This document shows positions 1 through 48,285 of a stretch of DNA of 64,000 nt, one piece after another; positions within the stretch are counted from its first letter, which is position 1; each line of letters opens with the position of its first letter. The notes under the pieces are model-generated. The model saw nothing but the letters and a program-made list of their open reading frames with translations. It did not search any database and was not told where the DNA came from. The stretch is from Clostridia bacterium (GTDB lineage Bacteria > Bacillota > Clostridia > Christensenellales > Aristaeellaceae), in NCBI GenBank assembly GCA_017549335.1, contig JAFYVB010000019.1:241-64240 (forward strand). The letters are read 5' to 3'. Position numbers and translations under genes: made by a program.

Positions 1-549
1 TTTTTGCGAGAAGTGGATCGCGGCGAGGTTGATCCCCTGCTCCTGATCCCCATGTTCGTTCTGGATTTCCTCTGCATCCATCCCTTCAACGATGGCAATG
101 GACGCATGAGCCGCCTTTTGACCCTCTTACTGCTGTATCGCAGCGGGTACATCGTCGGCAAGTACATCAGTATCGAAATGCTGATCGAAAAGACGAAGGA
201 CACCTATTATGATGCACTGCAAGCAAGCTCTACCGGCTGGCACGACGGCGCGAATGATTACATGCCTTTTGTCTCCTACACGCTGGGCATTATCAAGAGC
301 GCATACAAGACGTTCTCTGAGCGCGTGGAGCATTTGACCACAAAGGGTATCTCCAAGCCGGAACGCGTGCGCCAGTTCATCGAAAACAAACTGGGCAAGG
401 TGACAAAGAAGGATATCATGGACGCTTGCCCCGATATCAGCGCAACCACCATCGAAAAGGCTCTTGGTGAGCTGGTGAAGGATGGTACGATCATCAAGAT
501 TGGCAATGGACGCGGCACGGGGTATGTTTACAACCGCAATGATCAGTGA
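1..549 (+). CDS. Fic family protein, C-terminal part (5' end outside window)
   Basis: The frame is open to the window edge. Fic motif HPFNDGNGR lies at nt 79-105, followed by a winged-helix-like tail (KKDIMDACPDISATTIEKALGELVKDG). Confidence 0.85.
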   Translation, partial: FLREVDRGEVDPLLLIPMFVLDFLCIHPFNDGNGRMSRLLTLLLLYRSGYIVGKYISIEMLIEKTKDTYYDALQASSTGWHDGANDYMPFVSYTLGIIKSAYKTFSERVEHLTTKGISKPERVRQFIENKLGKVTKKDIMDACPDISATTIEKALGELVKDGTIIKIGNGRGTGYVYNRNDQ

Positions 550-563
550 TTGGAGGGAACGAT

Positions 564-896
564 ATGGCTACCTTTGAAAATACAAACAAGACTTTGCATA
601 TTGCTGACGCTACACGTGAAATCGCTGAAATTCAGAAGATCATTAACGACTATAAGCAGGGGCGCGGAATTGATCGGGAAAAGGTTGCTGAAATCATCAA
701 GCGTCTTAATTCGAAAGACGTTACCATCGCGCTCTTCAATTCCAAACTGAATCCGAGTTGGACGTTGATTGCCGATGCAACAGACGAGCAGATTATTGGC
801 AATTTGAATCTTACGCTGTTGTACCTGTCTGGCAAAATGACAGTCGAAGGAATCTGTGATATCGTCAAAGGAGACAAGAACCATACTAACACTTAA
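564..896 (+). CDS. hypothetical protein, 110 aa
   Basis: ATG 564 is preceded by GGAGGG (552-557), 15 nt after the Fic stop and co-oriented with its neighbours. The composition is charged and helical. No motif was recognised. Confidence 0.55.
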   Translation: MATFENTNKTLHIADATREIAEIQKIINDYKQGRGIDREKVAEIIKRLNSKDVTIALFNSKLNPSWTLIADATDEQIIGNLNLTLLYLSGKMTVEGICDIVKGDKNHTNT

Positions 897-953
897 TTCG
901 ATTGAAAAAGATATATTTTGTGGCCAAACGAATGCACAGAAGGAGTTGAGGTC

Positions 954-3900
954 ATGATAAAAAGATGGTTTGAACGAATTTATGCAGGAATCCGAAAGAT
1001 AGTTACCAAAATCAAAACTAAGCGAGCTTCTAAAAAACACAACACCATCTTTTGGAGTCTGACTCCCAAAGATGATCTTGACTTGCAGATTTATGAGCAA
1101 GCGATTGATTATGCTTTTAAGAAAAAAGACATACATAATGTCGCAATTTCAGGTGCTTATGGCGCGGGAAAAAGCAGCATTATTGCATCCTACAAAAAGA
1201 AGCATCGTCGTCTTAAGTTCATGCATATTTCGCTTGCGCATTATCAACCTATTTCTAATCAGGACGGAGAAGCTAATATCGCTGAAAATGCGCTTGAACT
1301 GAAAATCCTCAATCAGCTTGTTCACCAGATCCCGGCAAGAAAGATTCCGCAAACTGGGTTCCGCGTAAAGCATCCGATCACATTTTGGCGAACATTGCTT
1401 TGGACTATTAGCCTTGCTGGATTTAGCATGGCTATGCTGTATGTCTTCTTGTTTGCCAAGTGGGGGAGTTTTGCGATTACGCTAACTGAATCACTTCCGG
1501 AACAATTTGCCCCATATATTGATGCTACAACACAGCCCTATGCGAGGTTGCTTGCGTTGGGTATTTGTATTCTGTTTGCAGTATTTATTCTGTATAAGGT
1601 CATTAGCGTTCAACGTCTTAAGAACGTCCTGAAGAAGGTGAGCATTCAGGGTAATGAAATCGAACTGAGTAATGGCGAAGTGGATTCATTTTTTGACCGC
1701 TACCTGAACGAAGTCCGCTATCTTTTTGAAAACGTTGGAGTGGATGCCATCGTCTTTGAGGACATGGATCGTTTCAATATGGAGAGTATTTTCGAAAGGC
1801 TCCATGAGGTGAATACACTGGTCAATCTTCGCAGAAAGAAGAAGCCGCTGCGTTTTATTTATCTCCTTAGAGATGATATCTATAAAACAAAAGATCGTAC
1901 CAAGTTTTTTGATTTTATTATCCCGGTTATTCCTGTCATTGATGCTTCGAATTCGTACAATAAGCTGAAAGAAATGCTGGAAAAGGCAAGCTTAATAGAA
2001 GGATTCGATGATTCGTTTTTGCAAGGTATTTCGCTGTACATTGATGACATGCGTCTTCTGCAAAATATTGTGAATGAGTTTATCATTTACTTTGATGAGC
2101 TGAAATCAACGGAACCCAATGCCAATAATATGTTGGCAATTATCACATACAAGAATTTGTTCCCGAAAGATTTTAGTGATTTGCAGTTGGGGCGTGGATA
2201 TGTTGCTTCTTTGTTTGCAAACAAGCATCTGTTGATTGATGCGCGTCAAAAAGAGTTGAATTCTCAAATTAAGGAAGCAGAAGCAAGAATTCAGCAAATA
2301 GATGCAGAAATTGCAAAAAGCGAAGAAGAAATAGACAAGATTTATGTCAATCCGTACTCTCGCTATCGATCTGATGAAGAAAAAGCTGCGATTGCGTTGA
2401 GAAAACAGTTAGTTCGCGAGAAAAAAGAAGGACATTCGGACGAACTTAGAGCATCGATAATTAGAGATAAAAAGTCCTTGGCTGAATTGGCGCAATCCAA
2501 TTTAAGCGAGTTGCTTAACCGTGATAACATAGATCAGTTTATGGTGCTGAGTGAACATTCACAAGAATATGCTGACGTTTTGCAAAATGAATACTTTGCA
2601 CTATTGAAATACTTGATCCGCAATGGTTTTATTGGAGAAACTCATTCTGATTACATGACGTATTTCTACGACGGGAACATTTCTGTTACGGACAAGACCT
2701 TCTTGCGCAGTATTACGGATCAGGAGGCTAAAGAATTCACCCATCCGCTTAGAAATGTTGCCGTTGTTCTGAAACGAATGAGAGACATCGACTTCGATCA
2801 GATCGAATCGCTTAACTTCGATTTGTTTGCGTTTATGCTGCAGCATGCAAATGCTAATCTTCCCCGTTACATTGCAATGATGCAGACGAATAAAGCAACA
2901 GATTTCGTGATTGAGTTTTTTGGAAAGAATCGCGTTATGCCGGAACTGATTCGAAATCTAAGCAAGCATTGGGCTGATTTTTTGCATCAAGCAATCACGA
3001 ATGGTTGGTTCGACAAAAAATCAATGAAAGAGTATTCCGTCAACGCATTGCTGTATCTTGATTCGGAAGAATTGAAAGCAGTGAACATTGATGGTTGTTT
3101 GACTGCCTATGTTTCAAAGATGCCCGACTATCTTAACATCGATAATCCAGATATCGATAGACTGATTGCTTCTTTTGAAGAAATAGGAATTGTGTTCGGA
3201 ACTATTGATGAAGAACACGCCGACACTACGTTGCTGAATGCTGTTTATGTCAGTAGTTTGTATACGCTCAATGCAGCCAATATTGCCGTAATGCTACATA
3301 CTCAATACAGTGTTCGTGATGATGAAGCCATCATGCATCGGAATTATTCAGAAATAATGTCTCGCTCCCATTCTCCAATGGCTGTCTATGTTTTGAATAA
3401 CGCTGAGATATACATGCAAACTTACTTGGGCATGTGTAATGGCTGGGTGGACGATTCTGAGGATTCAGTAATTGCTATTCTGAATAGCGAAGATATTTCT
3501 TTGGATACGAAAATTCGCTATATTGCCATCATGCGGACGATGATTACAGACCTAACGGCTGTCACTTGCATTGAGTGTTGGGAAACAATGTTTGAAAAGG
3601 AGCGTGTCGTATTCTCTGAACATAATGCGCTGGCCGCTTTCTTCCAGAATCAAGAACTTACTCCGCTGCTGATTGGCTTCGTCAATAAGGGGCAATGTGT
3701 AATTGACTGCGATGCCATTCGAAATGAATATCAGAATGACAAGCTGGTAACGTTTATGGAAGCCATGATGCGGGAGGACAGTGTGTCAAATACAGTGTTT
3801 GAATGCTGGATTTCCGGCTTGTACTCGATTTGCTCAGATGAATATGCTTCCTTTGAAGTGGGAACAACGCTTAATGCAGTCAAAATGCGATTCCTATTTG

Positions 3901-4604
3901 ATCTGAACATTATACCCATGACCGCAGATGGCTTGTCTTTTGTTAGAAAGCATTATTGTCAACATATTCGCTACTTTGTCGTTCAAAGGATTTCGGAGTA
4001 TGTCGCAATAATGAATGCAACGATCTTCATCCATGAAGAATTGTTGAACTTGTTGACTTGGCAGGAAGTAGATAGCGATACCAAACTGGAACTGCTCAAA
4101 CATGCCTCTCAACCCATCAGAATAAGCAGCAGCAACTATGAAGCCCCGGTTGCGTTACACATTGTCCAGCATAACTTTGACGAAAGTGAATTGCCGCAAT
4201 GCCTACTTCAATATAGAAAGTATAGCGCTGAGGTACGGGAGGCTCTTGTCGAAAAAGCGTTGTTGAATATTGATGTCGCTATTGAAAATGCAGATAAGCT
4301 TGATGATGCGCTGGTAGTCAGCTTGATGAGTAGCGAAATTGCTCTTGAAAAACGCATCGAGTTCCTTGTTAAGCTGATGCATGTGTGGAGTCAGGAATGT
4401 ATTTTGCAAGAACTGGATAATTGTGGCCTAAATGAATATCGCAAGCTTCTGAAACCTTACGCTGGTAAGACAATCGCTGTTGATTCTATTAGCAGTAAAT
4501 TGCTGAGCGCTTTCCAGTCAGCTCAATGGATTGACTCTTATGCAAAGGATGCTAACGATACCAACCTATACAGAATTGAATTGCCGAAAAAGAAGCAGAA
4601 GTAA
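954..4604 (+). CDS. KAP-family / YobI-like P-loop NTPase with transmembrane insertion, 1,216 aa
   Basis: ATG 954 follows AGGAG (941-945). Walker A GAYGAGKSS is at 1152-1175, two hydrophobic helices at about 1380-1604, and Walker B AIVFEDMDR at 1743-1772. A long helical C-terminal region includes a coiled coil (QKELNSQIKEAEARIQQIDAEIAKSEEEIDKI). The architecture matches B. subtilis YobI and KAP NTPases. Confidence 0.75.
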   Translation: MIKRWFERIYAGIRKIVTKIKTKRASKKHNTIFWSLTPKDDLDLQIYEQAIDYAFKKKDIHNVAISGAYGAGKSSIIASYKKKHRRLKFMHISLAHYQPISNQDGEANIAENALELKILNQLVHQIPARKIPQTGFRVKHPITFWRTLLWTISLAGFSMAMLYVFLFAKWGSFAITLTESLPEQFAPYIDATTQPYARLLALGICILFAVFILYKVISVQRLKNVLKKVSIQGNEIELSNGEVDSFFDRYLNEVRYLFENVGVDAIVFEDMDRFNMESIFERLHEVNTLVNLRRKKKPLRFIYLLRDDIYKTKDRTKFFDFIIPVIPVIDASNSYNKLKEMLEKASLIEGFDDSFLQGISLYIDDMRLLQNIVNEFIIYFDELKSTEPNANNMLAIITYKNLFPKDFSDLQLGRGYVASLFANKHLLIDARQKELNSQIKEAEARIQQIDAEIAKSEEEIDKIYVNPYSRYRSDEEKAAIALRKQLVREKKEGHSDELRASIIRDKKSLAELAQSNLSELLNRDNIDQFMVLSEHSQEYADVLQNEYFALLKYLIRNGFIGETHSDYMTYFYDGNISVTDKTFLRSITDQEAKEFTHPLRNVAVVLKRMRDIDFDQIESLNFDLFAFMLQHANANLPRYIAMMQTNKATDFVIEFFGKNRVMPELIRNLSKHWADFLHQAITNGWFDKKSMKEYSVNALLYLDSEELKAVNIDGCLTAYVSKMPDYLNIDNPDIDRLIASFEEIGIVFGTIDEEHADTTLLNAVYVSSLYTLNAANIAVMLHTQYSVRDDEAIMHRNYSEIMSRSHSPMAVYVLNNAEIYMQTYLGMCNGWVDDSEDSVIAILNSEDISLDTKIRYIAIMRTMITDLTAVTCIECWETMFEKERVVFSEHNALAAFFQNQELTPLLIGFVNKGQCVIDCDAIRNEYQNDKLVTFMEAMMREDSVSNTVFECWISGLYSICSDEYASFEVGTTLNAVKMRFLFDLNIIPMTADGLSFVRKHYCQHIRYFVVQRISEYVAIMNATIFIHEELLNLLTWQEVDSDTKLELLKHASQPIRISSSNYEAPVALHIVQHNFDESELPQCLLQYRKYSAEVREALVEKALLNIDVAIENADKLDDALVVSLMSSEIALEKRIEFLVKLMHVWSQECILQELDNCGLNEYRKLLKPYAGKTIAVDSISSKLLSAFQSAQWIDSYAKDANDTNLYRIELPKKKQK

Positions 4605-4609
4605 GCTAA

Positions 4610-4645
4610 AGGCCCAACACCTCGTCCTCTGTAGGTGTTGGGCCT
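4610..4645. terminator. bidirectional hairpin between convergent NTPase and integrase genes
   Basis: Perfect 13-bp inverted repeat AGGCCCAACACCT-N10-AGGTGTTGGGCCT. Confidence 0.7.
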
Positions 4646-4651
4646 CACAAC

Positions 4652-5881
4652 TTACAGCAACTCAATCCCCCTCTTCAACTCCGCGATGCCATCCTCCGAA
4701 ACTGCGATGTAATACTTCCTTGTAGTCTCAATCTTGCCGTGGCCCATCTGGTTGCACAGCAAATGCGGCGGGATGTTCATGTCGGCGAGGTGGGTTCCGT
4801 AGGTGTGCCGGAGATGGTGGTATTTGAAGTTGATTCCCTTTTCTTTGAGGGCTCTTGATGGGTATTTGATCGAATTCACCGTCTGCATGTGACCGTTCGG
4901 CAGAGAGTTGACCAGTTCAAGAGAGGAAATCATCTGCCCGTCCACGTCTTCGATCATGGTCTGATTCTGCTGCCGCTGATAGAAAAGAACGACTTCATCT
5001 TCCTTGCGCCTCTCCCACAGCGCGGCCAAATACTGTTTCATGCGTTCGTTCAGGTAAATGGTGCGGTAGGCGTTCTTCGTTTTGAGTGTCACCAGCTTGA
5101 TGATCCCGTCCTGATACTGCATCTGACGCTCAATGCGGATCATGCCGTTTTCAAGATCAACGCAGTCCCATTTGAGGCCGAAACACTCATTGATGCGCAG
5201 TCCGCAATAGCGACCCAAGAGGTAAGCAGTCTCCGTGTTTGTTCCTGCAAAATATTCGTCCATGATGGCGCATTCGGCTCTTGTAAAGGCTACGATGTCC
5301 AGCCGTTCGTCCACCTTGGCTTTCGGCATGTGAATCTTCGTGTCTTTGTTCACGCACATCTTGTTGTACGCCTGTTGGGACATGTAATCGCGGGAGTACG
5401 CTTGCCCGAAGATCAGGTAGAACATTTTGAGGAAGGATTCCACATACCGGAAGGAATGGCCCTGCTCATAGTACAGGTTGGCAAGATAATCCTGCACCTC
5501 GGCCACAGAAATCTCATCGATCACCCGCTCCCCGAACTTGTCCCGAAGATAGTTGTTCCAAAGCGAATTCTGCTTCAAAACGGTGTTGTAGGCTCTGTCG
5601 GCGCGACCCTTTTCGCAGTATTCAAGGAACACTTCTTTTACAGTTTTAGGCTCGGCAATCGGAATGCCGTCAATCGGTTCTTTGGCTTTCGCGGCCTTGA
5701 TTGCAGCGCGGCGTGCATCAACAGCAGCTTTCTTTGTCAGGTAGGGCACTCCGTAAACGTCTTTCGTGCGGCGTTGCGCAATCACTTCGCCATCGACAGT
5801 TATCTTGAATCGGTACGCCCAGTTGCCGCTTGGCAGGGGATAAACGCCTGTGTCGTACTTCTTTTTCTTCGCTTTCGCCAT
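4652..5881 (-). CDS. tyrosine-type site-specific recombinase/integrase
   Basis: 409 aa. The C-terminal catalytic region reads HHLRHTYGTHL...GHGKIETTRKYY, and an upstream RINE arginine context is present. RBS GAAGGAG precedes ATG 5881. Confidence 0.9.
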   Translation of the reverse strand: MAKAKKKKYDTGVYPLPSGNWAYRFKITVDGEVIAQRRTKDVYGVPYLTKKAAVDARRAAIKAAKAKEPIDGIPIAEPKTVKEVFLEYCEKGRADRAYNTVLKQNSLWNNYLRDKFGERVIDEISVAEVQDYLANLYYEQGHSFRYVESFLKMFYLIFGQAYSRDYMSQQAYNKMCVNKDTKIHMPKAKVDERLDIVAFTRAECAIMDEYFAGTNTETAYLLGRYCGLRINECFGLKWDCVDLENGMIRIERQMQYQDGIIKLVTLKTKNAYRTIYLNERMKQYLAALWERRKEDEVVLFYQRQQNQTMIEDVDGQMISSLELVNSLPNGHMQTVNSIKYPSRALKEKGINFKYHHLRHTYGTHLADMNIPPHLLCNQMGHGKIETTRKYYIAVSEDGIAELKRGIELL

Positions 5882-6049
5882 GATTTTTCCGCTCCTTCAA
5901 AATTGTCTTTTTAGACACTTTCAAAGAAACCGACACTGCGTGTTTTCGCCACCATCAGCGGGAAACCAAGTGTTCGTTCCCCAGCGGGGCGTAGAAATCG
6001 CAGGGATTCGGCCCGAAGGGACGAAGAACGGAGATTTCCAGCCGCGCTA

Positions 6050-6118
6050 ATGGCCCGCGACGAAGCCCGCCATGGCAAGGCTTTCGAAGGCCTCCTGAAG
6101 CGCTACTTCGGCAAGTAA
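6050..6118 (+). repeat. att-like direct repeat copy 1 (truncated gene 3' end, reads MARDEARHGKAFEGLLKRYFGK*)
   Basis: About three-quarters identical by eye to 9134-9200. It ends in TAA, is followed by a terminator, and lies beside the integrase 5' end. Confidence 0.6.
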
Positions 6119-6146
6119 GAAATCCAGTAAAATCAAAGGTTTTCAA

Positions 6147-6179
6147 GGGAATCACTCTGAAAAGGGTGGTTCCCTTTTT
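6147..6179 (+). terminator. intrinsic terminator after repeat copy 1
   Basis: GGGAATCAC-N10-GTGGTTCCC followed by TTTTT. Confidence 0.5.
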
Positions 6180-6382
6180 CTACTTTTCTGCCATTCTGCT
6201 TCTGGTTTGGGTGTGTTTTCACCCCTCCTTTATGTCATTCCTATGCAGAAAACTAAAGACCAATAGTGAATATAAAGTGGATTGACTGACCTGTTTTAAT
6301 AATCTGTTTTTATAATCATCGAATTAATATTGATTTTTTGTTCGCATCATGGTATAATCAGCAGCGGAAAGGAGATGAAATC

Positions 6383-7375
6383 ATGAACCGCGAAACGATT
6401 GCTAAGATTGTGAAAGCAAGCGGCGTATCTGCCGGCGAATTAGTTCTTGTTCACTTTTGGGGTGAAGACGCAGATAAAGAAATAGCAAATAACTTTGTTG
6501 CGTCTGTCGCCGCTTTGGGAGCAACCCCCTTTCTTTTGCAGCAGGCTCGCTCGATCAATCAGACTATTTTCTCGACTGCAAAAGAAACTTGCTTTGATGA
6601 TCGCTACTTTGACCTGTTTTCCAAGTTTGATGCTGTACTGGATGTATTTGCATACCAACCTATTGTTCTTGGCGGTAAGATTGAAGAGGAACAGATGGTT
6701 CTTTACCGCAAGTACATCTCGCAGTTGTTCTACAAGCTGATGGAATGCACACGTTTTACGCAAATACGGATCCCAACAGTAGCTAATGCGGCAGAGTCAA
6801 ATCTTGATCCTCAGGAATACATTCAACGAATGACTAAAGCTTTTGATATTGACTACCCCGAAGTTGATTTAGCTTGTAAGCGTGAAGTTGAACGATTTTC
6901 AGGAGTGACCAAGGTTGTTGTTCATTCAGGGATTGATTGTGCTTTGTATTTTGATATAACCGATCGCGCATGGCACGTTGATTCCGGCAATGGCGATCTT
7001 CCTTGCGGAGAGATATACATTGCTCCAATAGAAGACAAATCCTGCGGCAATGTATTCTTTGAAACATTCTATTTGGATGATGTGAAATACAACAATGTTA
7101 CTTTACAGATTTCAGATGGCGAAGTTTCAGGGAGTAGCAACAAGGACGTTGAGGAACATTTTGCTAAGTTGTCGAAAGAAGATAGGATGGTTTGTGAACT
7201 GGGTCTGGGAATGAACCCCAATGTAAAGGACTTGTGCGGATATACCGTGCTTGACGAAAAAATGATGGGAACATTTCACATTGCAGTTGGTACCAATACT
7301 ATGTTCGGCGGAAAAAACGAAGCATCCAATCACATTGATTTTGTGGGATGCGGAAAAGTAGAGGTTATCTTATGA
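6383..7375 (+). CDS. M29 (aminopeptidase T/PepS)-like protein, 330 aa
   Basis: ATG 6383 follows GGAGA. The C-terminal motifs GEIYIAP, ELGLGMNP, LDEKMMGTFHIAVG and SNHIDFV resemble thermophilic metalloprotease M29. Confidence 0.7.
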   Translation: MNRETIAKIVKASGVSAGELVLVHFWGEDADKEIANNFVASVAALGATPFLLQQARSINQTIFSTAKETCFDDRYFDLFSKFDAVLDVFAYQPIVLGGKIEEEQMVLYRKYISQLFYKLMECTRFTQIRIPTVANAAESNLDPQEYIQRMTKAFDIDYPEVDLACKREVERFSGVTKVVVHSGIDCALYFDITDRAWHVDSGNGDLPCGEIYIAPIEDKSCGNVFFETFYLDDVKYNNVTLQISDGEVSGSSNKDVEEHFAKLSKEDRMVCELGLGMNPNVKDLCGYTVLDEKMMGTFHIAVGTNTMFGGKNEASNHIDFVGCGKVEVIL

Positions 7376-7743
7376 TTGAACAGAATCTGTCGAAGCTGAG
7401 TTGCTACTTTGAAGAACAGATTGCTATGTGCGGCCAGCGGACTGCGGAATTGCTTGCGGATGCTCGTACAGACGAAGCCAACTTTGAGAAAATCAAAGCG
7501 AATGTCTACGATATCTTCCGCACAATCCTTTCTGTTGCGGTCAAAAGCAGCAAAGGAGATCCCGTAACCGTCCGGCGTTTCTTTCTTCAAAAAGCTGAGC
7601 AGATCCCGTCAAACTGGATGGCTGCGTTCGAGGCAGCGAAACAGCACAATGATGTGATCAAGATGCAGATTGAGCAAATCAAGCTTGATACAATTCATGA
7701 GATCAAGGAGACCTTTGCAAACATTTGGGAGGGAGAAGCATGA
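7372..7743 (+). CDS. hypothetical helical protein, 123 aa
   Basis: ATGA start/stop overlap with the upstream gene (ATG 7372, TGA 7373-7375). No motif was recognised. Confidence 0.6.
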   Translation: MIEQNLSKLSCYFEEQIAMCGQRTAELLADARTDEANFEKIKANVYDIFRTILSVAVKSSKGDPVTVRRFFLQKAEQIPSNWMAAFEAAKQHNDVIKMQIEQIKLDTIHEIKETFANIWEGEA

Positions 7744-8294
7744 CAGAATTTGAGGCGATTCGCCTTTTTAAGTGCCTGTCTGATAAGTCTCGCTTGCAAA
7801 TCCTCAAGTCGCTTGCAATCGAAGATATGTATGTTGAGCGTTTAGCTGAACGACTTGGCATCACTGCCCCGACGGCATCCTTTCACTTGAAAAAGTTGGC
7901 TGATGCCGGTGCAGTTACATCCTACAAAAGTCAGTACTACATGATGTATTCACTCAAGAAGGATATCTTTGAAACAAGCATTATGGATATTCTGCAAGAG
8001 GAGTCCGATGAAGCTGAGGTACACGCTCAACGGGATGCTGAATATCGTCAGAAGGTGATTGATGCATTCTTCGAGTATGGTAAGCTGAAAGCTATTCCCA
8101 CCCAGCGCAAGAAGGAACGTATTGTTCTGGAAGTTATCGTCCAAGCATTCGAATATGATCGTGTTTACTCCGAACGTGAGGTTAACATTATCATTGCTGA
8201 TTTTCATGACGATTTCTGTACGATCCGTCGTGATATGATCGGCGAGCAACTTCTGGATCGAGACACTACAGGATATTGGCGTGTGAAGCCATAA
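7740..8294 (+). CDS. ArsR-family HTH regulator with DUF2087-like C-terminal domain
   Basis: ATGA overlap at 7740-7743. The N-terminus FKCLSDKSRLQILKSL...VERLAERLGITAPTASFHLKKL is a typical ArsR/SmtB wHTH. Confidence 0.75.
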   Translation: MTEFEAIRLFKCLSDKSRLQILKSLAIEDMYVERLAERLGITAPTASFHLKKLADAGAVTSYKSQYYMMYSLKKDIFETSIMDILQEESDEAEVHAQRDAEYRQKVIDAFFEYGKLKAIPTQRKKERIVLEVIVQAFEYDRVYSEREVNIIIADFHDDFCTIRRDMIGEQLLDRDTTGYWRVKP

Positions 8295-8306
8295 GGAGAT
8301 AATGAG

Positions 8307-8747
8307 ATGGTTATTGGAATCTTTGGTGAAAGTTGTACCGGAAAATCCACACTTGCAGAAAAGCTGAAAACACAGCTTGATGCTGAAGTCTACACCGGTA
8401 AAGATTATTTGCGTCTTGCGAAGAATGAGACCATGGCAAAGATGCTTTTTCAAAAGAAACTGGATGAAGCGGTCTCTGGCTCGCATATTATCTATGTGAT
8501 TTCTGAAAGAGAACATTTGCCATTACTCCCAGCCAACGCAATTAGAATTCTGGCAACAGCAGATTTAGCGGTCATTAAAGAACGTTTCGCACAGCGTATG
8601 AGAGGGAATCTTCCTGCACCCGTTGCGGCCATGCTGGAAAAGAAGCATGGGTGCTTTGATGCCGAAAACTGTGATTTTCACGTGGTCTCCGGCCAAGATG
8701 ACCTGGATGAGGTTTGTACTTCCATTCAGAACAAAGTGCTTGGATGA
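8307..8747 (+). CDS. small P-loop kinase-like protein (cytidylate-kinase-like / AAA), 146 aa
   Basis: AAGGAG lies at 8293-8298. Walker A is GESCTGKST. Confidence 0.65.
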   Translation: MVIGIFGESCTGKSTLAEKLKTQLDAEVYTGKDYLRLAKNETMAKMLFQKKLDEAVSGSHIIYVISEREHLPLLPANAIRILATADLAVIKERFAQRMRGNLPAPVAAMLEKKHGCFDAENCDFHVVSGQDDLDEVCTSIQNKVLG

Positions 8748-8870
8748 CAAGGCGGTCTGCTGGTAAGGATTGTGCCTCCAATAGAAAAAACAACAGGATG
8801 TGAAGCAGTATCGTGGGATGAATGGGTATGCTAACATGAGAACAACATACATAAAGAAAGGAAAATCATC

Positions 8871-9128
8871 ATGAACATGAATTGGAAAGACATGACGCTG
8901 CTGCAAAAAATTGCCCTGATCATTAGCTGCATTGCTGCTTTTATAGCCGCACTTGCCCTTCGGGATCCGAACCTTTTCCCCATCAACATGACTTCCCCCG
9001 CTATCGCAGTGATTACTGTCTTCGAAGCCTTGGCCTATTGGAAGCAAAACCGCAAATTGGCCTATCTGCTGATTGCCGGTGCAGTCATTTCCCTGGCCTT
9101 CTTCGGAGCAGAGCTTTTCCTGCTTTAA
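8871..9128 (+). CDS. small hydrophobic membrane protein, 85 aa
   Basis: AAAGGAAAA lies upstream of ATG 8871. Two to three predicted hydrophobic helices. Confidence 0.5.
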   Translation: MNMNWKDMTLLQKIALIISCIAAFIAALALRDPNLFPINMTSPAIAVITVFEALAYWKQNRKLAYLLIAGAVISLAFFGAELFLL

Positions 9129-9133
9129 TAAAA

Positions 9134-9200
9134 ATGGCGCGGAGAAACCCGCCATGCCAAGGCTTTCGAAATCCACCCGAAGCGCTGCTGCAACAAGTAA
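9134..9200 (+). repeat. att-like direct repeat copy 2 (degenerate)
   Basis: Aligns with 6050-6118 with two 1-nt gaps. The shared core is CCCGCCATG(G/C)CAAGGCTTTCGAA...GAAGCGCT...AAGTAA. Confidence 0.6.
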
Positions 9201-9231
9201 TTTAACCCAAATAAGCTAAAACGCCGATTTC

Positions 9232-9265
9232 AGAGGACGGTCCCGCGAGGGGCTGTCCTCTTTTG
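9232..9265 (+). terminator. intrinsic terminator after repeat copy 2
   Basis: GAGGACGGTCCC-GCGA-GGGGCTGTCCTC followed by TTTT. Confidence 0.5.
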
Positions 9266-9403
9266 GGTCTTGCTTCAGTCCTTGGCTTCTGCTGCCACCG
9301 CTCAGACCAGTTTCCTCTGTCACAACTCTTCAGTCACAACATTGGCTAAATTACAGGTGCAGCAGTTTCTTCTGTCAATTTTCCGTTTCAAAGAAAAGGG
9401 CAG

Positions 9404-9432
9404 TTGCCGCTTTCGTCATTATGTGGTAAAAT
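9404..9432 (+). promoter_or_regulatory. sigma-A-type promoter candidate
   Basis: TTGCCG, a 17-nt spacer, then TAAAAT with TGG immediately upstream (extended -10). Confidence 0.4.
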
Positions 9433-9484
9433 GCCTTATATCGGTGCTGAAAGGAGAAATTTAGTATTTGACGAAAGCCTGGGG

Positions 9485-9809
9485 ATGTACACCGCCAAGG
9501 TAAACGGCGTCACTGTAGCCTATGAGGATGAGGCTTCCGCCAACGATCTTGATCGGGCAAACACCGTTGCGAGCTTGTATTACAAGCGTCTTGACGAGAT
9601 CATTGCCTTCATGATGCCCGATCTTCGTGAGATGTACGGCGAAACAGATGCAAAAAACCGTAAAGGAAAACCTTGGCACGCCCATCGTTTATCCCGATAC
9701 GTGTGTTATTGAGTATCTTGATCATTCGCTGGACTATGAGCACATCTTCACGCTGGAGTTCTCCAATCCCGATTTTACCGGCTTTAAATACTTTTCTGTG
9801 GATGGCTGA
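9485..9809 (+). pseudogene. frameshifted hypothetical gene (A6 tract at 9651-9656)
   Basis: Two overlapping ORFs (9404..9712 and 9627..9809) join into one sensible protein if one A is removed: ...REMYGETDAK|TVKENLGTPIVYPD.... The start codon is uncertain. Confidence 0.55.
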
Positions 9810-20055: not shown

Positions 20056-20176
20056 GCCTGCAGAATTGACAAAAAACCGCAGGCGGAGGGAACTCCGGAG
20101 AATCTCTTCAGTGAGTGCCGAAGGTGCAAAGCCGGTTATACCGGTGGAATCTCTCAGGCAAAAGGACGGAGCAGGC
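20056..20176 (+). promoter_or_regulatory. glycine riboswitch (single aptamer with 5' accessory hairpin)
   Basis: CCGGAGAAUCUC...GCCGAAGGUGCAA...GAAUCUCUCAGGCAAAAGGAC matches the conserved glycine aptamer core. The downstream gene is an alanine/glycine:cation symporter. Confidence 0.75.
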
Positions 20177-20271
20177 TATCAATATACATTCGTGTATCAG
20201 CTGTCTGCATCAGTCCCCCGGAGCTGCCTGAATGGGCGACTATTTTTTATTTCAGAAAGGGGACGCACACC

Positions 20272-48046: not shown

Positions 48047-48052
48047 GGATCA

Positions 48053-48285
48053 GGCGATGAACGGAAAAGTCGTCCGGCAAATTCACCCCAAGAGAGAGCG
48101 CGTCACCGGCTGCGAGCGTGCTCGGGCGAATCGGGCAGTGCCTCCGCGAGCCGCACACCGAAAATTACAGTAGGCTGTGCCGTATACGCTGCGTTAAAGC
48201 GATTCAAGAGGAAAAGCGCTGCTTTTCAATCGGAGTGGAACCGCGGTTTATCACCGTCTCCTTGCTGGAGGCGGTGTTTTGTTTT
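48053..48285 (+). promoter_or_regulatory. T-box leader (presumed Cys) with terminator
   Basis: AGAGAG at 48091-48098 and T-box sequence AATCGGAGTGGAACCGCGG at 48228-48246. The terminator is CACCGTCTCC/GGAGGCGGTG plus a T-run (48252-48285). The downstream genes are cysE-cysS. Confidence 0.8.

Follow-up and report, generated by a model that had tools for sequence, protein, structure and literature searches.

Introduction

Positions 1–6179 of a 64,000-nt stretch of Clostridia DNA (assembly GCA_017549335.1, contig JAFYVB010000019.1; the whole stretch is referred to below as the window) carry the 3' part of a Fic gene, a small open reading frame (ORF), a gene for a large NTPase and a tyrosine integrase gene. 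The closest described system for the largest of these genes is Tmn, a transmembrane (TM) NTPase active against several phages that was first reported by Gao et al. 2020 (per PMC11846954). A 2026 preprint assigned Tmn to the YobI family, located two TM helices within the P-loop domain and validated the protein in E. coli ECOR25 (Tmn-25) and in four other Proteobacterial variants (PMC13001434). Tmn assembles as a decamer; its proximal arm, a coiled coil, and its distal arm, an ARM/HEAT-like solenoid, detect the phage protein RIIB, and once activated it turns over ATP and exports Mg2+, with plasmolysis as the outcome (PMC13001434). The same work divided Tmn into ten clades, placed 24% of the occurrences in Bacillota and found no conserved operon (PMC13001434).

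Two other groups of proteins are relevant. Among SoFic-type proteins, EcSofic is followed by a 47-amino acid (aa) downstream antitoxin, AS1 (PMC12249575). KAP P-loop NTPases (PifA, EF_KAP) are membrane-associated, have defence activity and occur in gut Firmicutes on islands marked by small serine recombinases, enzymes that have been proposed as markers of defence islands (PMC13552941).

A sequence-only reading of the window had proposed that Fic, the small ORF and the NTPase form one undescribed defence or abortive-infection module on an integrase island. Our analysis points to a different arrangement. Positions 1–6179 are, with high probability, the right-hand cargo end of an integrative element that carries two independent defence-type units, which came to lie side by side by deletion of a Type III restriction-modification (R-M) mod-res pair. 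Judged from homology and gene context, the locus, from a gut or rumen Clostridia genome, is a defence island of the ordinary kind and not a new three-gene system. The features of this region are as follows, with the basis of each assignment in parentheses (AF2, AlphaFold2; dN/dS, ratio of nonsynonymous to synonymous substitution rates).

1..549, plus strand: 3' part of a class II Fic gene, residues ~171–352 of 352 aa (Pfam, PADLOC)
79..105, plus strand: Fic catalytic motif HPFNDGNGR (direct translation)
564..896, plus strand: 110-aa helical protein (17 homologues, dN/dS, AF2)
883..915, plus strand: decayed 5' remnant of a Type III R-M methyltransferase gene (mod), start codon ATG changed to ATA (alignment with L015 and L017)
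912..4646, plus strand: Tmn cassette, consisting of a leader with ribosome-binding site, the gene and a terminal hairpin (blastn breakpoints)
954..4604, plus strand: Tmn-family (YobI-like) transmembrane P-loop NTPase, 1,216 aa (PF20693, PADLOC Tmn, hhalign)
4610..4645, no strand assigned: hairpin between the convergent Tmn and integrase genes, part of the cassette (stem, folding, breakpoints)
4652..5881, minus strand: tyrosine integrase of the island (Pfam, PHROG)
6049..6179, plus strand: right end of the island, a 3' gene fragment (…ARDEARHGKAFEGLLKRYFGK and stop codon) followed by a terminator-like hairpin at 6145–6176 (homology end, terminator scan)

Results

The large NTPase and the Tmn family

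The 1,216-aa protein is identical to the Clostridia protein IKW00_05080 from an NCBI metagenome-assembled genome (MAG). It had been described as a KAP/YobI-type NTPase, and a Pfam search upheld the second half of this label only: YobI-ATPase (PF20693) matched at 388 bits against a cut-off of 27 (E 7.9e-116, profile positions 1–362 of 363) and was the sole return at E <= 0.01, with no match to KAP_NTPase (PF07693). The PADLOC Tmn model matched with an E value of 6.6e-64 over profile positions 20–484 of 1,273. Pairwise similarity to the clade I protein WP_064055658.1 ends after the NTPase domain, and a family profile built from 73 sequences aligns with it throughout; in hhalign, profile positions 10–1198 were paired with residues 20–1246 of 1,273 over 1,119 columns (probability 100%, E 2e-61). 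WP_064055658.1, encoded on an E. coli plasmid (L022; loci used for comparison are given L numbers) and annotated as an 'anti-phage transmembrane ATPase', possesses every residue that was mutated in Tmn-25, at the published numbering.

In a multiple alignment, the window protein retains all nine NTPase residues on which Tmn-25 depends for defence. These are G72, K73, Y256, D270, R273, N291, K317, F318 and R367, corresponding to G66, K67, Y262, D276, R279, N297, K325, F326 and R374 of Tmn-25, and they are invariant in 10 further homologues. Within the proximal arm, R544 aligns with R483. When the C-terminal 796 aa alone served as the query, 1,729 representative clusters were retrieved, and among the 150 matches listed the full-length proteins (~1,100–1,300 aa) matched at the same C-terminal position. 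Full-length homologues of ~39% identity are common in Enterobacteria, where they are annotated as 'YobI family P-loop NTPase'. A sequence search of the PDB with the whole protein gave no match.

Taken together, the alignments place the large protein in the Tmn family over its full length, i.e., in a single-gene anti-phage system that has already been described. The notion that this NTPase was undescribed is thus no longer tenable, Tmn being present in PADLOC and characterised experimentally (PMC13001434, PMC11846954); the defence role that had been proposed for it is still the best reading.

It could be argued that a YobI-like protein has a membrane role other than defence and that its similarity to Tmn reflects the shared NTPase fold alone. 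To our knowledge, no function has been assigned to YobI of B. subtilis, which leaves room for such an argument. The homology to a validated Tmn nevertheless extends from end to end and takes in the arms; the gene is part of the AT-rich cargo of a mobile element; and the Tmn genes of its relatives stand beside McrBC, Type III R-M or other conflict-system genes. The arms also evolve faster than the NTPase domain (dN/dS of 0.16 vs 0.07), as expected of a sensor engaged in an arms race. We give this alternative very little credence.

Domain architecture of the window protein

The following parts of the protein were localized.

1152..1175, plus strand: Walker A motif GAYGAGKS, aa 67–74; G72/K73 correspond to Tmn-25 G66/K67 (translation, alignment)
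1392..1457, plus strand: TM helix 1, aa 147–168 (Kyte-Doolittle hydropathy, window of 19, maximum 1.88)
1533..1619, plus strand: TM helix 2, aa 194–222 (Kyte-Doolittle maximum 2.71)
1743..1772, plus strand: Walker B region DAIVFEDMDR; D270/R273 correspond to Tmn-25 D276/R279 (translation, alignment)
2223..2495, plus strand: proximal arm of long paired helices forming a coiled-coil hairpin, aa ~424–514 (AF2 model)
2592..4448, plus strand: alpha-solenoid-like distal arm of ~45 short helices, aa ~547–1165 (AF2)

The Walker motifs, FEDMDR of Walker B being aa 268–273, are separated by 197 aa (a distance of about 190 aa had been given earlier). Exactly two hydrophobic segments occur in the whole protein and both lie between these motifs; beyond aa 450 the hydropathy reaches a maximum of 1.35. 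The expected TM hairpin inside the P-loop NTPase domain was hence recovered, as was the long helical C-terminal part with a coiled coil. The C-terminal ~800 aa are predicted to be nearly all helical, with long paired helices at the start (4–31, 54–71 and 74–94 in the numbering of the AF2 fragment model), followed by the ~45 short helices of the distal arm and a small beta element at the C-terminus. The AF2 model of the arms has a mean predicted local distance difference test (pLDDT) score of 86.5. Its best Foldseek matches were all HEAT/ARM solenoids, at E >= 1e-3 and with low TM-scores, none being individually significant.

The Tmn cassette, its neighbourhoods and the junction with the small ORF

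In the ORF map, confirmed by direct translation, window positions 1–4645 hold the Fic fragment (1–549), the 110-aa ORF (564–896) and the 1,216-aa ORF (954–4604) in that order. All three had been said to lie in AT-richer DNA. This applies to the small ORF (42.0% GC) and to the large gene (40.3%); the Fic fragment, at 51.9%, and the integrase gene, at 51.1%, match the window mean of 51.5%. The AT-rich anomaly is a mark of the cargo formed by the small ORF and the large gene, Fic not included.

The limits of the Tmn unit were set by blastn breakpoints, as L017 matches window positions 912–6179, L019 positions 917–4646 and L020 positions 1047–4602. In L017 (Tmn 89% identical) the same element has the order Fic-109aa-Mod-Res-Tmn-integrase, so that a Type III Mod-Res pair separates the small ORF from Tmn. 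L019 (Tmn 87% identical) has the order McrB-McrC-Tmn and is devoid of Fic, the small ORF and the integrase, while L020 (Tmn 73% identical) and the distant homologues L022 and L103 likewise have no Fic. Such a distribution shows that the cassette at 912–4646 is a single-gene unit which moves as a whole between neighbourhoods and has no conserved partner.

The cassette ends in a hairpin with a perfect 13-bp stem (4610–4622/4633–4645) and a 10-nt loop, as had been noticed in the sequence-only reading. Its folding energy is -29.2 kcal/mol (z = -5.0), a value equalled by 0 of 200 shuffled sequences. The terminator scan of the window did not report this hairpin, which has a 10-nt loop and no T run. 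The structure is probably a bidirectional terminator, though one without a strong T tract. A promoter scan of the window found 11 promoters against 11.8 expected, which is the background level; no promoter is therefore claimed for the cassette.

Positions 883–915, at the junction between the small ORF and Tmn, align with L015 from position 4766 and with L017 from position 3696, where the mod gene (an N6_N4_Mtase gene) starts at 4768 and 3698, respectively. In the window, this mod remnant with its mutated start is fused to the Tmn leader just as that leader is seen downstream of res in L017. On this alignment, 883–915 is the scar of a deletion that removed a Type III mod gene and brought the small ORF up against the Tmn cassette; the present adjacency of Fic-110aa and Tmn is hence a product of that deletion.

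These observations bear directly on the proposal that the NTPase is the sensor, Fic the effector and the small protein an adaptor or antitoxin of a single abortive-infection or defence system. The arrangement in the window invites this interpretation, the three genes being co-oriented, separated by short gaps and followed by one hairpin after the last gene. A distant Tmn homologue in L104 is likewise found ~3 kb from a Fic gene with a small downstream ORF. Gene context nevertheless largely refutes a three-component system. Tmn cassettes of 87–89% identity occur with McrBC and no Fic, or with Mod-Res separating Fic from Tmn, and the cassette of L020 also lacks Fic; the pair Fic-110aa occurs without Tmn in four independent contexts (L009, L010, L012 and L015); none of 80 Fic-family genomes had Tmn near Fic; the junction arose by deletion; and no conserved Tmn operon emerged from the published analysis of neighbourhoods (PMC13001434). 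As for L104, its Fic and 102-aa ORF proved unrelated to those of the window when compared, and two opposite-strand genes intervene. We therefore regard a single three-gene system as very improbable, and the reading of two independent units as the one to be retained.

Two loci with distant Tmn homologues deserve mention in their own right. In Paenibacillus (L103, 3301–6808) the homologue directly follows genes with CTD6 and MC2/MC4 domains, which come from NTP-dependent conflict systems. In L104 (2635–3885) the homologue, of ~39% identity, is preceded 3 kb upstream by the unrelated 312-aa Fic and 102-aa ORF; Fic with a small downstream ORF may be a recurrent defence-island architecture.

The Fic gene and its R-M association

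The sequence-only reading had pointed to the left of the window for the missing N-terminus of Fic. An exact-protein look-up recovered this flank on a 124-kb metagenome contig (L001), where the full-length gene of 352 aa lies at 8538–9596. The catalytic motif was borne out by translation, and the wider Fic motif HxFx(D/E)GNGRxxR is present as HPFNDGNGRMSR at window positions 79–114. The fragment matched Pfam Fic (E 2e-9) and PADLOC SoFic (E 1e-24), and the full-length protein matched PADLOC SoFic with an E value of 1.9e-38 over profile positions 50–352 of 361. The alignment of the full-length protein also revealed an inhibitory motif, SNRIEG, in the part outside the window. A C-terminal winged helix is indicated by a weak DIP2311-like_C match and by PADLOC SoFic coverage up to position 352 of 361. 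The closest solved structure is 8uqu_A (E 3e-86), whereas SoFic chains in the PDB matched at E ~3e-7 over the Fic core alone, and the score for the NCBIfam SoFic equivalog (NF046030) was 48.4 bits against a cut-off of 550. Overall, these matches indicate a class II, SoFic-like putative AMPylase with a C-terminal winged-helix domain.

A genome scan of this Fic family returned at least 597 relatives, of which 80 loci were retrieved, 63 of them usable. Neither Tmn nor the 110-aa ORF was near Fic in any of the 80 genomes. Type I hsdM was directly downstream of Fic in 35 of the 63 usable loci, which suggests a systematic Fic/R-M association in gut Clostridia; by the same gene-order comparison, the lineage of the window Fic is R-M-associated and normally the first gene of an R-M operon. 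These 35 loci belong to the wider family (60–67% identical; L025–L102), with Fic immediately before hsdM (HsdM_N + N6_Mtase), e.g., at L037 6001–8561.

The 110-aa protein

The small ORF is preceded by a GGAGG ribosome-binding site. It is a real gene under purifying selection, as evidenced by 33 invariant columns among 17 homologues and a dN/dS of 0.08–0.10. Its AF2 model is a helical bundle (pLDDT 79) with no fold match in the PDB (best E ~1). No match was found in Pfam, NCBIfam or PHROGs, and the PADLOC hit (PDC-M54B, E 0.004) was non-significant. A 197-aa antisense ORF (543–1136, minus strand) overlaps the small ORF and the start of Tmn, and is probably spurious because the plus-strand ORF is under purifying selection.

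In every context examined the 110-aa ORF is downstream of Fic, sometimes with a 208-aa gene between them, and it never occurs with Tmn alone. The slot that follows it varies, holding nothing, a mod fragment, Mod-Res, an Abi_2-family gene (L012, ~0.6 kb further on) or Tmn. A 208-aa ORF, absent from the window and with no family match, lies between Fic and the 110-aa ORF in L015 (3823–4449), L010 (7374–8000) and L012 (185–811). Its stop codon overlaps or abuts the start of the 110-aa ORF, and this suggests translational coupling of the two. Within the Fic family, the 110-aa partner is limited to a narrow sublineage.

An antitoxin or regulator role for this protein is plausible because EcSofic has the downstream antitoxin AS1; by that analogy, it would most likely modulate or neutralise Fic. 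If it is an antitoxin, as had been suggested and is possible, its target would be Fic and not the NTPase. A broader proposal, which we consider less likely than not, is that the protein is an undescribed partner of a class II Fic AMPylase linked to R-M, serving it as antitoxin, regulator or phage sensor. The two genes would then form a module at the head of a slot for variable defence cargo in a family of gut Clostridia integrative elements; this slot is either empty or occupied by Tmn, Type III R-M or an abortive-infection gene of the Abi_2 family.

The 110-aa protein could instead have been an accessory or regulatory part of a former Type III R-M operon, in which case the window would hold a leftover. 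Its stop codon overlaps the mod start by 14 nt in L015, L016, L017 and L018 and overlaps a mod fragment in L010; the overlap in L015 and L017 is the reason for keeping an R-M-accessory role in play. A mod remnant follows the 110-aa ORF in the window, and the slot between Fic and mod is itself variable, containing the 110-aa ORF, the 208-aa and 110-aa ORFs, or DUF6680 (L023). Purifying selection nevertheless persists where mod is absent, a fragment or a remnant (L009, L010, L012 and the window), and Fic was upstream of the 110-aa ORF in every case seen. We consider an origin as an R-M accessory rather unlikely, and continue to treat the 110-aa protein as a candidate partner of Fic.

The integrase and the ends of the island

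The gene that converges on the cassette from beyond the hairpin was correctly recognized as a tyrosine integrase and as an indication of a mobile island. It matched Phage_integrase in Pfam (E 5e-21), together with a SAM-like N-terminal domain, and PHROG 1 (integrase, E 3e-43). Homology to L017 and L009 ends at window position 6179. The element therefore has a tyrosine recombinase at one end and a homology boundary with the flank at 6179, as is characteristic of integrative elements, and 6049–6179 is probably the att region. The gene fragment at this end matched no Pfam family, and no tRNA or tmRNA that could have served as an integration site was found in the window. A search of 16 kb of L001 yielded no convincing att-type direct repeats, the left end of the island lying past the available contig.

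On L001 the gene order is an ArdC-like gene, a small resolvase, an 895-aa TPR/DUF6273 protein, two small ORFs and an HTH regulator, followed by full-length 352-aa Fic, the 110-aa ORF, Tmn and the integrase. The 895-aa protein had no match in the defence library. The part of this backbone at L001 1900–6490, to the left of the window, encodes an ArdC-N/MPTase-PolyVal protein and a 197-aa small serine recombinase in addition to the 895-aa protein.

A sequence of ~70–120 nt, comprising the …ARDEARHGKAFEGLLKRYFGK end with its stop codon and the terminator-like hairpin, recurs at module boundaries. Copies are found in the window (6049–6179 and 9133–9200), in L009 (6303–6425 and 8465–8584) and in L023 (757–825, 1892–1928 and 5646–5726). 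On sequence comparison, this pattern looks like copies of an att site left by tandem accretion of related elements. Window positions 6180–9132, between two of the copies, have a GC content of 0.42–0.46 compared with 0.53 further right. They encode a weakly peptidase_M29-like protein, a 131-aa ORF, an ArsR-type HTH_5/DUF2087 regulator, a small P-loop kinase-like protein and an 85-aa membrane ORF, and may represent an older, decayed island at the same site. The housekeeping part of the window, further along, contains two ordinary Firmicute features, a glycine riboswitch aptamer (51 bits, 20085–20179) and a T-box leader (95 bits, 48048–48264).

Discussion

By homology with E. coli Tmn-25, the first unit, a self-contained Tmn cassette at 912–4646, would encode a protein that is membrane-embedded via the two-helix hairpin of its P-loop domain and oligomerises. 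Its coiled-coil and alpha-solenoid arms, exposed to the cytosol, would recognise a phage protein; once triggered, Tmn would turn over ATP and export Mg2+, and the collapse of the cytoplasm and of the ATP pool would arrest phage replication. The second unit would comprise the SoFic-like Fic AMPylase (1–549 and the part left of the window) with the linked 110-aa protein at 564–896. The two became neighbours on loss of the Type III mod-res pair, with the scar at 883–915. A link between Tmn and Fic through ATP, which the one would deplete and the other consume, was considered and rejected since nothing supported it.

Several points weigh against this account of an established anti-phage NTPase next to an independent Fic unit. 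In pairwise comparison with clade I Tmn, the NTPase domain is ~30% identical and the arms are 13–18% identical; of the three residues of the proximal arm that are essential, two (F506 and Y541) lie where the alignment is unreliable. The TM helices were called from Kyte-Doolittle hydropathy alone. All validated Tmn variants are Proteobacterial, and plasmolysis as a read-out was established for a Gram-negative envelope (PMC13001434). The Fic, 110-aa and Tmn genes of the window share one orientation, are spaced by 14 and 57 nt and have no intervening terminator, so that they are probably co-transcribed and some functional interplay may exist. Finally, the 14-nt overlap of the 110-aa ORF with mod in L015 and L017 represents a coupling at least as tight as that to Fic, and the ORF is absent from L023, whose Fic locus is 90% identical.

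The main value of the analysis is that a false lead was prevented, as a standard PADLOC/DefenseFinder run would label Tmn and a SoFic-like Fic. In addition, the Tmn cassette, clostridial in origin and cleanly bounded as a mobile unit, could serve for examining the plasmolysis/Mg2+-export mechanism of E. coli in a Gram-positive-type envelope, and a small, conserved and unannotated protein family tied to an R-M-associated Fic lineage is brought to attention.

Comparison with known systems

Of the systems compared, KAP NTPases share with the window protein the character of a membrane-associated P-loop NTPase, and the window island also carries a small resolvase; unlike them, the window protein belongs to the separate YobI-ATPase model, with KAP_NTPase unmatched at E <= 0.01.

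The Fic protein resembles SoFic and EcSofic in its motif (HPFNDGNGRMSR), the N-terminal inhibitory SxxxEG, the C-terminal winged helix, a near full-length PADLOC SoFic match and a small gene immediately downstream. It differs in reaching 48 of the 550 bits of the NCBIfam equivalog cut-off, in being much closer to structure 8UQU, and in belonging to a wider family whose members are typically the first genes of Type I/III R-M operons. The downstream protein, compared with AS1 by position and linkage, is 110 aa in length, in contrast to 47 aa, and belongs to a narrow sublineage.

The strongest likeness is to Tmn. The window protein is of the same size (1,216 aa vs ~1,210–1,273 aa), has Walker A and B motifs with two TM helices between them, keeps the nine essential NTPase residues and is predicted to possess a coiled-coil proximal arm and an alpha-solenoid distal arm. 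Like Tmn, it is encoded by a single-gene cassette on mobile DNA in defence neighbourhoods, and its variable arms evolve faster than the NTPase core. It differs from the validated proteins in its host, a Clostridia MAG as opposed to Gram-negative bacteria with another type of envelope; in its identity to clade I (~30% in the NTPase domain and <20% in the arms); and in being located on a tyrosine-integrase island and not on an F-type plasmid.

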